DNA from: Escherichia phage vB_EcoS_MM-1
Sequence record: PV577657
DNA: 64,000 nt
Reading direction: 5' to 3' (one strand)
Position numbers and translations under genes: made by a program. This document shows, piece after piece, positions 3,166 to 11,964 of this stretch. A model generated the notes under the pieces. It did no database searches and had not been told where the DNA came from. It was given only the letters and a program-made list of their open reading frames with translations. Each line of letters begins with the position of its first letter. Position 1 is the stretch's first letter.

Positions 3166-4155
3166 ATGACAGAAGAAGTAGCTAAGAGTCCTGAGACCGT
3201 CGCTAGCGTTGCAGCAGAACTGCACCGTCACGAGGAATCAGATAAGAAAAAGTGGGAGAAGGTCAGAGCCTACGAAGAAAAACATCGTGAACACGATGAT
3301 GAAGAAGAAGATGACGATGATGAACATTGTCATAAATATGGAAAACATAAAATGCAAGAACCAGTAAACGTATTCACTAGTGGCTTCCCTGGCCTACTGG
3401 GTGGTTACCCAGCAAACGCAGGTGCTTTCGGTGGTGAAGGTATGGGACTATTCGGAGCTATCCTAATCGGTGCTCTATTAACCGGCGGATTCGGTGGTTT
3501 CGGTGGATTCGGTGGACGTGGTGTAGTTGGTGAAGGTACCGCAGTTGATGCAGTACTTCAGAACCAAGATACCGCTAGTATTCTAGCAGCTATCAACACT
3601 ACTCGTACAGAGGCTAACCAGGGTACTGGAGCTGTTTTAAGCGCAGTTAACAATGGTTTTAGCCAGACAACCCAAAACCAGAGCCGTGATACTCAGTCTG
3701 TACTAACTACGATCTACGGTACAGATGCTAATCTGTCTAATCAGATCTGCCAGGAAACTCGCAACGTTATTCAGGGTCAGTTCGATCTTTCTCGCCAGAT
3801 TGATCAATCTTTCGCAGCTAACCAGATAGCTCGTGCACAAGATAAGTTTGATTCTGCACAGATCGCTTTCCAGCAGACTTTACAAACTAATAACCAGTTT
3901 GCCGCTGTTCAGGCTCAGATGTGTGCTAACCAGAACTCTCTGGAACGTCAGATCGCTGAATGTTGCTGTGAACTTCAGACTGCGATCGCTGGTGTAACTA
4001 CTGCGCGTATCCAGGATGAGTTAGACGCATGTCGCCTACGTGAAGCAATCGCTGCGGGTAGCGGTGCTAACGGTCAGGTAATTAATCAAATCGCTTTAAG
4101 TCTTGGTGCTATCACTCAGACTCTGGCTGGTCTGCAGGCTAAACTGCCGGCTTAA
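3166..4155 (+). CDS. acidic N-terminus / Gly-zipper hydrophobic segment / Q,N,T-rich coiled-coil protein
   Basis: AGGAGG RBS before MTEEV; D/E-rich N-terminus with HCH motif; GGFGGFGGFGG segment; host-optimal codons. Confidence 0.7.
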   Translation: MTEEVAKSPETVASVAAELHRHEESDKKKWEKVRAYEEKHREHDDEEEDDDDEHCHKYGKHKMQEPVNVFTSGFPGLLGGYPANAGAFGGEGMGLFGAILIGALLTGGFGGFGGFGGRGVVGEGTAVDAVLQNQDTASILAAINTTRTEANQGTGAVLSAVNNGFSQTTQNQSRDTQSVLTTIYGTDANLSNQICQETRNVIQGQFDLSRQIDQSFAANQIARAQDKFDSAQIAFQQTLQTNNQFAAVQAQMCANQNSLERQIAECCCELQTAIAGVTTARIQDELDACRLREAIAAGSGANGQVINQIALSLGAITQTLAGLQAKLPA

Positions 4156-5969: not shown

Positions 5970-6472
5970 TTTAAGTATTTTTAAGAACTCTCGTAAAAAC
6001 TCTTAAAAATACAGACGATACCGGGAGAGTCATAAGTCTCACTCATTAAGTATTTCAAGACAAAATACAGTAACGTCTATTATTTTCCAGTTTAAGTCAG
6101 GGTGACTTAGTGGTTATGTCCTGCGGTATATTGAGGACTCGGTTAGGCTTGGGGTCATGACTTCCCACCTTTTGCTGCTACTCAACAGGAGTTATCGCGA
6201 ATTACCTGTGCTATTGTGCACCATTAGTGACATCTCTCATGTCAGCATTTCCCACTTTGTGGATAGCTTGAAAAACTACTCCGATATGGAGAAAGAACTT
6301 CACTATCCTAGAATACCTTCTAAAGTTCTTCTTTAGCCTGGACATAGTTAAATCGTAATAAAACTATTCAGCAGACTGGTTGGTTAGTCTGGAACCAACT
6401 ACCGCGTGGTTTAGGCAGTGCGCAACTAACCTCGGAAGCTTTTATGTTAAAAGCATCAGTTATCCAGTTCTT

Positions 6473-6545
6473 ACCGACCGTAGGATTCGAACCTACATCT
6501 TCCACCAGTTACGGCTTGATAATACCAATTATACTAGGACGGCAG
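6473..6545 (-). tRNA. tRNA-like element (perfect T-arm, no clean anticodon arm)
   Basis: GTAGG/TTCGAAT/CCTAC T-arm with partial acceptor pairing; possibly degenerate. Confidence 0.35.
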
Positions 6546-6744
6546 TGTTACTACATAAGTGATTTCCACACCCCACTATTTATAAATCAGAGAAGAGTTT
6601 AGGGGAGAGGTTTCAGACGCCTCATTTTACACGTTCTAGCCACTAACCGGGATTGCCGCCCCCTGTGTACTAGTTTTACAACTAACCCACCGACTCTATT
6701 CAATGCGCTCCGGTTGGGATTCTGCACTCAGCGTAATCGGCTCG

Positions 6745-6800
6745 CTGTTCCCTAATTTATGAATATATTATACAGAATTTATAAGCATTTAGCAAATGAA
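6745..6800 (-). promoter_or_regulatory. T5-type early promoter driving leftward transcript into noncoding/tRNA region
   Basis: Minus strand TTGCTA -17- TATAAT then ATATTCATAAATTAG. Confidence 0.55.
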
Positions 6801-7476: not shown

Positions 7477-7944
7477 TTAAGTTTTAGTGACAACAGGTTT
7501 ATAGAATGTATGTCCCTTAATCTTAGTTGTTTTCTTAAACTTCTTTGTCCAGTAAGGTTTATCTTTACCACTATGGAAGTATAGTGCTCCATATGTAGGA
7601 TCTTGTGGTAAATCAACGTAGTATATCACTCTAGCTAAATTCTTAGCGGTTTGCCAAGCCTCATCAGTTTTATCAACTTTTGGTCTCTTAGATACCCAAG
7701 AGAACTGGTTAGACTGATATACTACTTTACAGTAGGAATCTGGGAATTTACCGGAGTTTACACGGTTTTTAGTAACATGTGCAATCGCCGTCATTCCCTT
7801 TATGCCCTCACCACGACTTTCGAAATAGATATTTTTAGCAATGCAATCTATTTCTTTTGCATCGTGCGATGCCTGACTACTAAAGCTGAAGGTAAGGGCA
7901 GCTACTAAAAGCAAAGCTGCCTTCATTCTTTTTACTCCTGCCAA
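7477..7944 (-). CDS. secreted SleB/CwlJ-like cell-wall hydrolase
   Basis: Signal peptide MKAALLLVAALTFSFSSQA; SleB-like motifs (NIYFES, VTKNRV, QFSW). Confidence 0.7.
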   Translation of the reverse strand: MAGVKRMKAALLLVAALTFSFSSQASHDAKEIDCIAKNIYFESRGEGIKGMTAIAHVTKNRVNSGKFPDSYCKVVYQSNQFSWVSKRPKVDKTDEAWQTAKNLARVIYYVDLPQDPTYGALYFHSGKDKPYWTKKFKKTTKIKGHTFYKPVVTKT

Positions 7945-8249
7945 TCATATTCAACACGATTGGGATTTTCTTTATACCCTAAGTCAAGCAAATCATTACG
8001 CATATTTTGCTTAGCTACTGGGTTCGAGGTTACTAGTACCACTTTCTTTGGTCTCTGCCCAAATTCTAAGAGTAAACGAAGAATTTGATAACCTTCCATA
8101 CCATCTACAGCCAAGTCATTATCCATATAAACGAAATGGCCGGTGGTATCAGTTTTATTCAGAAACTCTACAGCGGCTTCTGGGGTTCGAATGATAATGT
8201 CCATTCCGTGAAGATTACGCACATCATCAATCAAAATATGAAAAGTCAT
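7932..8249 (-). CDS. receiver (REC/CheY-like) domain protein
   Basis: ILIDDV acidic pocket, central MDNDL Asp, VVLVTSNP; CheY-fold spacing. Confidence 0.55.
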   Translation of the reverse strand: MTFHILIDDVRNLHGMDIIIRTPEAAVEFLNKTDTTGHFVYMDNDLAVDGMEGYQILRLLLEFGQRPKKVVLVTSNPVAKQNMRNDLLDLGYKENPNRVEYDWQE

Positions 8250-9636: not shown

Positions 9637-10338
9637 TCAAATTTTCATTTTTTCGATCATAGCTGCAACACAATAGCTCTCAACTAAGGCATCAAATGCT
9701 GGGTCGTGCTTAACCGGATAGATCCCATAACGAATGGTGTCCATCTTCTCCATTTTAGCTATTGCCCAGCTAATACCTTCGGTCTCTAGAGCTTTATAAC
9801 TGTATCCAGCTTGCATCCAGAGGTTACGAAGAGATCGAACATTACCCAAATTCCAGAATTTCCACGGAACTACCTCTTCATTGGTTCCAGCATGGAACGT
9901 GTTTGCAGAGTAGATAGTCATATCAAACTCTGGACCGTTTCCATAATACAAAGCATTTTCGCCTAAAGCCAACTCCATAATATTTTTAGCCATAGAGTAG
10001 GCAGCATAGTTAGAGCCGAGTTTATTAGTGCAATGATGTTTACCATTTTGGAAGGCAATCAGTTTTGGATTACGTTCCTTCATAGCTTCCATAATGTGGA
10101 TAGCAGACGGGCTATTTTTAGCTTGATCCATCCAGAATGCTAGAGTAGATGCTGTAACTTTGGCACCAGAATTAAGTTGATCTTGTACATCCAAAGTAAC
10201 AAATATTAGATCAGGGTCTTTATCAATTCCATGCATAGCCACAAAAGCGAAAGAAGGCATTGCGATATGAGTAGTACCACAATCTCCTGGAGTTCCCAGA
10301 GATTCAATATCTAGCATACCAAATGGTTTTACTTTCAT
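9637..10338 (-). CDS. DEDDh-family 3'-5' exonuclease (DexA-like)
   Basis: Exo I LDIESLG, Exo II NGPEFD, Exo III HDPAFD motifs. Confidence 0.65.
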   Translation of the reverse strand: MKVKPFGMLDIESLGTPGDCGTTHIAMPSFAFVAMHGIDKDPDLIFVTLDVQDQLNSGAKVTASTLAFWMDQAKNSPSAIHIMEAMKERNPKLIAFQNGKHHCTNKLGSNYAAYSMAKNIMELALGENALYYGNGPEFDMTIYSANTFHAGTNEEVVPWKFWNLGNVRSLRNLWMQAGYSYKALETEGISWAIAKMEKMDTIRYGIYPVKHDPAFDALVESYCVAAMIEKMKI

Positions 10339-10366
10339 AACTTATCCTTTATTGTGTAGAAAACTA

Positions 10367-10603
10367 TTAAAGAGACAGCTCTTTAATAGACTCCCACTTC
10401 TTGGGGTCTTTAAAACCAGGAAGCATATCCTCACTGACATCCCAGTTCTCTTCCATAGAGAAGTCGGGCCACTCATTCCAGCTACCTTCCAGCTCTTCAT
10501 AACAGGTATCCATTACCTCATGACTAGAAAGTCGTGTATAATCTCTAGCGGACTTATGAGTGCTAGCACGGTTAAAATCATTCTTTGCTACAAAATTACG
10601 CAT
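10367..10603 (-). CDS. small acidic Trp-rich protein
   Basis: 78 aa; D/E- and W-rich C-terminal half. Confidence 0.55.
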   Translation of the reverse strand: MRNFVAKNDFNRASTHKSARDYTRLSSHEVMDTCYEELEGSWNEWPDFSMEENWDVSEDMLPGFKDPKKWESIKELSL

Positions 10604-10617
10604 AGTTTCTCCAAATA

Positions 10618-10642
10618 AGAGGGGCTTTCGCCCCCTGATTTA
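10618..10642 (-). terminator. stem-loop terminator
   Basis: AGGGGC-TTTC-GCCCCT hairpin. Confidence 0.5.
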
Positions 10643-10644
10643 AA

Positions 10645-10860
10645 TCATTTGCCCAGCAGTTTAAGGATATTTTCCATAATAGTTTGGGCAGATTTTTCAC
10701 TCTTGTTGGTTTCAGTCAACTTTAAAGCGAGTTCTTCCTGCTGTTTCTGAATATCAGCAGCGATTTTTTGATCAGCCTCAATACGAGCTTGAAGCTCATC
10801 AGTGATAGTGGTAAAGGAAGCAACGATTTCAGTAACGGAACGTGGTTTCTTAGAGAACAT
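10645..10860 (-). CDS. hypothetical coiled-coil protein
   Basis: 71-aa ORF. Confidence 0.55.
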   Translation of the reverse strand: MFSKKPRSVTEIVASFTTITDELQARIEADQKIAADIQKQQEELALKLTETNKSEKSAQTIMENILKLLGK

Positions 10861-10894: not shown

Positions 10895-10920
10895 TTGTAG
10901 GGGCTTCTGCCCCTATTTAT
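10895..10920 (-). terminator. stem-loop terminator
   Basis: AGGGGC-TTCT-GCCCCT hairpin after stop of 10924..11439. Confidence 0.5.
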
Positions 10921-10923
10921 CTA

Positions 10924-11439
10924 TTACTTCGCTTTACGTTTGCGAGCTGGTTTAGCAGATTTACGAGCGGAATCACCCGTGAACTTAATGCCTACGCCGT
11001 AACACAGAGCACGAACATTATCTTTACTATACTCTACGCCAAAGATATTTGGCTTAACAGAACCAAACTGTCCACGAGTATCACGCAATACATCTGCTGT
11101 TGGTTTACGCTTCTGGTTAACTGCCTTCTCATAGTCTTTCATAGACATACCATTACGAGAGAACAATTCAGCCCCAGCGTTGAAGCTCAGGGAAACTGGG
11201 ACAGATTTGTGGCCGTAATTTTCTACATACATAACCATTTTGTAGGATTTACGGGTGGCATTTTTAGCTTTAGGCTTCTGACGAATCGGAGCCGGATTAT
11301 TCAGTGCTTGCGCAGCCTGAGCATCAGTAGGATGCTTACGCAGGTGACGTTCCAGACGAGCTTTGCGATTAGCCTCAGTCTTCGGGAAAGTTTTAACTGC
11401 CGGAGCTGCTTGAGTTTTTGCGTTTTTCTGCTTAGCCAT
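10924..11439 (-). CDS. basic (K/R-rich termini) protein, possible nucleic-acid binding
   Basis: 171-aa ORF with Lys/Arg-rich N- and C-termini. Confidence 0.65.
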   Translation of the reverse strand: MAKQKNAKTQAAPAVKTFPKTEANRKARLERHLRKHPTDAQAAQALNNPAPIRQKPKAKNATRKSYKMVMYVENYGHKSVPVSLSFNAGAELFSRNGMSMKDYEKAVNQKRKPTADVLRDTRGQFGSVKPNIFGVEYSKDNVRALCYGVGIKFTGDSARKSAKPARKRKAK

Positions 11440-11444
11440 TATTT

Positions 11445-11514
11445 GTTTTCCTTTTTGTTTATCAATTTATGAAGTATATTATACGAGAATTTGAAGCGTT
11501 TAGCAAATGAATTT
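11445..11514 (-). promoter_or_regulatory. T5-type early promoter
   Basis: Minus strand TTGCTAAACGCTTCAAATTCTCGTATAATATACTTCATAAATTGAT. Confidence 0.55.
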
Positions 11515-11964
11515 TTAATTTATTAACTGTAAGCTTCTTTTAATTTCAGACCTTACTTGCATCAAAAGGACTCCTAAAGTATTATCCCCGATGCCTCGGC
11601 AAACACCCCAATATGTATCTCCCCAGGTATTTCCTTCGATCAAAGTTGCATTTTCTGTTGCTAACAGTTTATCTCTTAAATCAGGAATTGCAAACTTTAA
11701 TCGTAAAAGCTCTAGCATTACATCATCTTTTACTTTATCCCAGTCAGAGCGTAGGGTTAATTTACGTCCTATACGTTTAGCAACTCCTGCATTTAGGGAG
11801 CGAAGTACATGAGCTACATCATCTTTTTGGTCGGATTTCATAGCCTGAAAAGCATGTTCTACAGTATCAGCATGCCATATCTCATTTAGATATTCGAAAG
11901 TAATTGGTGATAAATAAAAGTTAGATAAGAAACTATAAGTACCTTTAAATTCAGTAATCTTCAT
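11515..11964 (-). CDS. NADAR (YbiA-like) domain protein
   Basis: Collinear YbiA/NADAR family motifs: FLSNFY, EHAFQAMK, DTYWG, LGVLLMQVR. Confidence 0.7.
   Translation of the reverse strand: MKITEFKGTYSFLSNFYLSPITFEYLNEIWHADTVEHAFQAMKSDQKDDVAHVLRSLNAGVAKRIGRKLTLRSDWDKVKDDVMLELLRLKFAIPDLRDKLLATENATLIEGNTWGDTYWGVCRGIGDNTLGVLLMQVRSEIKRSLQLIN

Follow-up and report, generated by a model that had tools for sequence, protein, structure and literature searches.

The window analysed here, 64,000 nucleotides of Escherichia phage vB_EcoS_MM-1 (sequence record PV577657), represents a T5-like coliphage; the 2-kb stretch around the gene under study matches Escherichia phage vB_EcoS_MM-2 at 100% identity, and approximately 440 Tequintavirus and Epseptimavirus records match it at 80% or more. 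The product shares 93.6% identity with that of T5.087, both being 233 residues long and both encoded downstream of T5.089 and T5.088. The gene forms a unit with a DUF7022 gene, a 71-aa open reading frame (ORF) and a T5.088-like gene behind a promoter (Table 1); in the T5 RefSeq record the matching place, upstream of T5.089, bears the annotation 'promoter P-H 207'. Its assignment to an early block in the original prediction agrees with this arrangement, given that the T5 orthologs lie behind annotated early promoters, including P-H207, and that the promoter sequence is present in the window; timing and co-transcription of the unit are taken from the T5 annotation. Genes coding for ribonucleotide reductase, dihydrofolate reductase, thymidylate synthase and RNase H lie upstream of the exonuclease gene, and the order DUF7022, DUF7230, exonuclease recurs in all relatives examined (contigs L006-L008, L015, L017 and L018).

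Table 1. Features of the exonuclease unit, in the order in which they are read; positions are those of the window.
Feature	Position	Strand	Basis and remarks
Early promoter TTGCTA-17-TATAAT, counterpart of T5 P-H207	11478..11506	-	Promoter scan, 10/12 matches
DUF7022 gene, T5.089 ortholog	10924..11439	-	PF22887, 1.9e-76; 171 aa, very basic, Lys/Arg-rich tail
T5.088-like gene	10367..10603	-	78 aa; weak DUF7230 match, 21.4 bits, under the Pfam cut-off
11-bp hairpin CTATTAAAGAG-CTGT-CTCTTTAATAG	10364..10389	-	Terminator scan
Shine-Dalgarno AAGGA of the exonuclease gene	10345..10349	-	Sequence; with the ATG, kept inside the fused Klebsiella-phage ORF
Exonuclease gene, ortholog of T5.087 (YP_006915.1)	9637..10338	-	Open frame, 233 aa; ATG at 10338
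Exo I motif D10-I-E12, metal-binding carboxylates	10303..10311	-	Sequence; aligns to DexA D7/E9
Exo II motif N134-G-P-E-F-D139	9922..9939	-	Sequence; aligns to DexA ...MSFD119
P158-W-K-F-W162-N motif, then R168	9850..9867	-	hhalign; counterpart in DexA is EPCKFW152N
Exo III motif H211-D-P-A-F-D216, general base His and last carboxylate	9691..9708	-	Sequence

The exonuclease is encoded at 80% identity or more in 437 records and the T5-type DNA polymerase, at the same threshold, in 443; the closest complete phage genome has one copy of the exonuclease gene (PF16473, 31.3 bits there). It is thus a single-copy early gene that practically all enterobacterial T5-like phages have retained. Outside this group the exonuclease of Klebsiella T5-like phages shares about 38% identity with that of the window and the copy in Vibrio phage Cody has diverged very strongly, while one other Vibrio lineage gave no match to the exonuclease family profile. 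The window phage carries two insertions that T5 lacks, namely the 71-aa ORF and a NADAR gene (11515..11964). The former (10645..10860, minus strand) lies between the DUF7022 and T5.088-like genes, is bracketed by GC-rich hairpins at 10897..10916 and 10620..10635 and has weak, sub-threshold Pfam matches; given that T5 has a mere 42-nt gap at that place, it resembles a small accessory gene acquired by insertion. At the other end, a promoter-like TTGAGA-16-TATGAT (9656..9683, minus strand) lies within the final 50 nt of the exonuclease ORF, and as the T5 RefSeq record places the T5.086 promoter at this very site, the exonuclease unit and the next one overlap. In one relative (L016 1244..1549) the exonuclease gene is followed immediately by an inserted HNH_3 homing-endonuclease gene.

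The DIE, NGPEFD and HDPAFD motifs named in the original prediction are all present as written, and in an alignment of 27 homologues reaching down to 36% identity the catalytic residues D10, E12, D139, H211 and D216 are invariant, as are G133-N134-G135, F138, P158, W162 and R168. The H-x4-D spacing at Exo III marks the protein, as judged by its motifs, as a DEDDh rather than a DEDDy enzyme. The gene is under strong purifying selection (dN/dS of 0.065 against the T5 ortholog), and the ORF is real. In a Pfam scan at E-values up to 1 the only family matched was PF16473, the Rv2179c-like 3'-5' exoribonuclease domain (33.7 bits, E 3.6e-8, profile positions 4-148 of 177); the protein clears the curated gathering cut-off of 27 bits, but modestly. 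We take Rv2179c of Mycobacterium tuberculosis, a 3'-5' exoribonuclease, to be the founder of this family; it was reportedly described by Abendroth and colleagues in 2014 as a cellular RNA enzyme. The protein also matches the PHROG 255 'exonuclease' family (2.5e-52). Searches of NCBIfam and PADLOC returned no match for the exonuclease, the T5.088-like or the DUF7022 protein, and single-sequence and profile searches of the PDB sequences recovered nothing real, the only matches being chance ones to designed armadillo repeats.

An AlphaFold2 model computed from the 27-sequence alignment (pLDDT 92.3, pTM 0.91) predicts an RNase T-like fold, that is, an RNase H-like alpha/beta exonuclease. Foldseek places RNase T on top among PDB structures (3NH0 and 2IS3; E 9e-5, TM 0.52-0.58, 12% identity, rmsd 6.8 A), and further matches include 3'hExo and the exonuclease domain of T7 polymerase. 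E. coli RNase T resembles the protein in being a DEDDh enzyme that acts on single-stranded 3' ends, but belongs to a separate family and is kin at the general fold level. Among viral models many DEDDh proteins were recovered, named '3'-5' exoribonuclease', 'Rv2179c-like' or 'DnaQ-like', and in BFVD the predicted DexA of phage PhiW-14 was matched (E 1.3e-6, TM 0.57-0.64).

T4 DexA itself (sequence from NC_000866) matches PF16473 with 79.9 bits and PHROG 255 with 3.6e-91. As a pairwise BLASTP comparison of the exonuclease with DexA was not significant (E 0.33), we turned to profile methods. In hhalign the exonuclease family profile reached 68% against the single DexA sequence and 95.7% (E 9.2e-9) against a DexA-family profile made from 21 members, over 144 columns running from Exo I to the KFWN motif; the C-terminal H-x4-D region falls outside this local alignment. 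The catalytic set of DexA comprises D7, E9, D119, H186 and D191 (PMC12153337; a figure legend there prints 'E12', yet DexA residue 12 is Gly), and compared with D10, E12, D139, H211 and D216 here its spacing is similar and the H-x4-D identical. Both proteins, of 227 residues in DexA and 233 here, share a '(P)xKFWN...R' motif, in which W162 corresponds to W152 of DexA, a residue that contacts the substrate (PMC12153337). This equivalence is the one such feature in common, whereas the residues behind the dimer/tetramer switch (S87, D90) and 5hmC recognition (D169) specific to DexA (PMC12153337) are not mappable at this alignment distance; moreover, 5hmC discrimination would be inapplicable to T5, because its DNA is unmodified (bioRxiv 10.64898/2026.04.02.716235). 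DexA also differs in having neither a T5.088-like partner nor an N-terminal module. Although 8KEL, one of the two DexA crystal structures (PDB 8KEL/8KEN; Kang et al., NAR 2025, PMC12153337), is in the PDB sequence set, it was absent among the best 50 of the 317 Foldseek PDB matches. The similarity is remote, yet the combined evidence supports the placement of the two proteins in the same family. In sum, motifs, PF16473, PHROG 255 and the predicted fold uphold the earlier assignment of a DEDDh 3'-5' exonuclease, and the DexA-type resemblance claimed with it is borne out at the level of family (PF16473, PHROG 255 and the profile-profile match) and size.

We then considered the T5.088-like gene, which lies directly upstream of the exonuclease gene in every divergent T5-like contig examined. 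Its small product combines a near-invariant, basic N-terminus (MRNFVAKNDFNRAxTHKS..DY.R, pI 10.9) with an acidic, Trp-rich C-terminal tail (pI 4.05). In Klebsiella T5-like phages the two genes are fused in frame; such fusions make up five protein clusters (136 proteins in one of them), and phage phi1_146058 has one, a 334-aa protein annotated as 'exonuclease'. A fusion is also seen in a different subfamily: in Vibrio phage Cody an ORF of 328 aa aligns to both modules (hhalign, 98.5%). Out of 1.84 billion proteins, an exhaustive HMMER search recovered just 17 T5.088-like representatives; an exonuclease fusion (P0015) was the single clear match with more than one domain, and two longer proteins (200 and 282 aa) gave weak matches in multiple stretches. 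AlphaFold2 modelling of a natural fusion (P0021) yielded pLDDT values below 50 for residues 1-23 and 64-80 of the N-terminal module and a single helix at 27-43, and the module is accordingly predicted to be mostly disordered. The T5.088-like protein, as these sequence comparisons suggest, probably partners the exonuclease or forms a detachable N-terminal module of it. As the Klebsiella fused ORF retains an internal Shine-Dalgarno sequence and ATG, the exonuclease could still be made alone in that phage. A literature search found no paper on T5.088.

The hairpin between the two reading frames spans the end of the T5.088-like gene, final codons and stop codon included, approximately 25 nt upstream of the exonuclease ATG. 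In ten relatives, which served both to derive the structure and to score it, pairing is kept in 97% of cells and both sides have changed at six of the eleven pairs; none of 500 shuffles reached these values, and sliding the partner strand lowered pairing to 35-53%. The encoded amino acids vary at the hairpin while pairing stays. The hairpin also persists where the ORFs are fused, in a Klebsiella phage and in Vibrio phage Cody (three additional cases were judged by eye), and therefore its function is independent of the stop codon. We propose that this covarying element probably sets the relative expression of the T5.088-like and exonuclease genes. Two specific mechanisms were considered and set aside: programmed frameshifting across the hairpin, as a route to a coliphage fusion, was rejected on account of a TAA in the exonuclease frame two codons before the ATG, and as to a classical intrinsic terminator, a U-run (UUUUCUAC) follows in the coliphages but is absent in divergent relatives, such that this reading could apply to no more than part of the family.

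Bringing these lines together, we consider it likely that the gene, the ortholog of T5.087, codes for a DEDDh exonuclease of the Rv2179c/DexA family that would have a non-essential role in DNA clean-up, work with the T5.088-like protein and be under control of the hairpin. As a two-metal DEDDh 3'-to-5' exonuclease it would free 5'-mononucleotides singly from free 3' ends. The most reasonable activity, as far as the sequence can indicate, is the degradation of short oligonucleotides or single strands, and by analogy to T4 DexA the substrates would be DNA first and possibly RNA. This DNA preference is an assumption, because RNase T, the best solved-structure match, and the founder Rv2179c are RNA enzymes. 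DexA for its part prefers ssDNA over dsDNA and is non-essential, with dexA loss carrying no measurable cost in T4 except on optA hosts (PMC12153337). T5.087 is similarly an early, non-essential phage gene: in a CRISPRi-ART knock-down of T5 it was scored 'Not Fit', as was T5.088, whereas T5.089 was the sole 'Fit' gene of the unit (PMC11879866 supplement). Loss of the enzyme therefore comes without measurable cost on the laboratory host. We suggest that it performs a dispensable clean-up in phage DNA replication, recombination and the repair of homing-endonuclease breaks, beside the products of the adjacent RNase H and nucleotide-synthesis genes, and that the T5.088-like protein, in view of the fusions, probably tethers or gates the nuclease. 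A literature search returned no study of T5.087 and no enzyme assay for any member of its clade, and the PhageExpressionAtlas paper does not mention T5.

A more elaborate version of this proposal, which we advance tentatively and consider possible rather than probable, is that T5.088, the hairpin and T5.087 constitute one ancient two-part nuclease module of the Demerecviridae. The DUF7230 protein would be its targeting or gating subunit, which coliphages make as a separate protein and the Vibrio and Klebsiella phages as a covalent part of the enzyme; the N-terminal peptide would dock the nuclease on a specific host or phage target, and the hairpin, as an RNA element, would set the product ratio through a mechanism such as partial termination, processing or ribosome pausing. 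The fused or split partner and the covarying hairpin offer a cheap and specific entry point to the role of DexA-like nucleases, the question at stake being their function in phages with unmodified DNA and no recycling of host DNA.

Of the other roles that might be envisaged for such an enzyme, one is that of mainly an exoribonuclease, in the manner of Rv2179c or RNase T, trimming the 3' trailers of the many phage tRNAs and RNAX or speeding RNA turnover to feed ribonucleotide reductase. The Pfam family is named after the exoribonuclease Rv2179c, the top solved-structure matches of the model, RNase T and 3'hExo, are RNA enzymes, and the gene is situated between the tRNA cluster and genes related to RNA ends (cREC_REC at 7932..8249, 'tRNA amidotransferase' and RNase H); in divergent relatives, too, the cREC gene is close by. 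However, this neighborhood says little, because T5-like phages share synteny over the entire region; RNase T is also efficient on ssDNA; DexA, the nearest characterized phage relative and a member of the same PHROG, is a DNA exonuclease; and the host RNases that trim tRNAs should persist as proteins during infection. On balance we regard a primarily RNA-directed role as doubtful, if still deserving of consideration. The scavenging of host DNA, which the original prediction listed as a candidate role and in which fragments would be converted to dNMPs for phage synthesis, is what DexA does in T4 (PMC12153337), and the adjoining genes for ribonucleotide reductase, thymidylate synthase and dihydrofolate reductase would be in keeping with it. 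It is nevertheless a poor fit to T5: the pre-early nuclease A1 is both required to destroy the host DNA and enough to do so, within about 5 minutes and before second-step transfer brings in the early genes, and the products are excreted without reuse (bioRxiv 10.64898/2026.04.02.716235). Thus, A1 would have finished with the host DNA before the exonuclease gene even enters the cell and, where T4 reuses host DNA via DexA, T5 does not; together with the lack of a fitness effect in the T5.087 knock-down, this renders the scavenging role improbable.

DEDDh exonucleases need a free 3'-OH, which cyclic oligonucleotides do not have. The cyclic oligonucleotides that had also been suggested as substrates are consequently unlikely ones, the more so since the anti-defense enzymes of the Acb1/Apyc1 type that degrade cyclic nucleotides have a 2H-phosphoesterase or metallo-beta-lactamase fold, as opposed to the DEDDh fold modelled here. 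A counter-defense nuclease could instead attack an immune nucleic acid or signal whose 3' end is free (linear oligonucleotide messengers and retron msDNA are examples), and T5.088 would then be its targeting subunit. Such a role might be read from the Pfam-detected NADAR gene of the region, from 'Sequestin'-domain genes nearby in relatives and from the small basic-then-acidic partner, of a kind we regard as typical of host-interaction factors, and it would be compatible with the absence of a laboratory phenotype on the defense-poor K-12 host. Yet cyclic messengers are beyond the reach of a DEDDh enzyme, nearly all enterobacterial T5-like phages carry the gene, in strongly conserved form, while T5 has no NADAR gene, PADLOC gave zero matches, and a literature search on DEDDh anti-defense enzymes gave no study of the T5.087 clade, all of which makes this role very unlikely in our estimation. 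A gene so nearly universal beside a NADAR gene that T5 lacks would rather be a housekeeping accessory than a counter-defense factor. The Sequestin (PF21825) genes just mentioned are small and were seen a few genes from the exonuclease gene in two divergent metagenomic T5-like contigs (L007 7329..7565 and L008 4262..4456); none was noticed in the corresponding region of the window, and they may be variable accessory genes there. Finally, the GenBank label of 'metallopeptidase' is the one point in favor of a zinc metallopeptidase, a reading to which we attach next to no credence: the predicted fold is that of a DEDDh nuclease, Pfam shows no peptidase family up to an E-value of 1, a Peptidase_M14 domain with the zinc-binding HxxE...H is absent, and the AY587007 gene model starts at Met27, thereby losing the DIE motif.

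The identification of the gene product as an exonuclease is not a discovery, as it is already catalogued as such in RefSeq and the PHROGs: T5.087, which is ORF082 in AY587007, is an 'exonuclease' in RefSeq NC_005859, and the vB_EcoS_MM-2 record likewise names the product 'exonuclease'. The 'metallopeptidase' label can be traced to IPR000834 (zinc carboxypeptidase A, M14) in both T5 records of 2005, and has spread to hundreds of T5-like records and to the UniRef names of the small upstream protein. The T5 records further disagree on the gene itself (6079..6747 of the AY587007 excerpt against 3450..4151 of the NC_005859 excerpt), with the AY587007 copy starting 26 codons late and having its stop replaced, such that it runs for 16 more residues (KIKFDLLPASKF...) past the stop of the other strains; an annotated repeat of 27 bp, 'repeat c copy 4', covers the 3' end of that gene. 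Many of the affected records come from phage-therapy and biocontrol work, and the spurious InterPro label of 2005 should be replaced. In many T5-like records other small genes of the early region bear the names 'tail length tape-measure protein' or, for the T5.085 ortholog, 'tail fiber protein', and these tail labels are probably further propagated errors.
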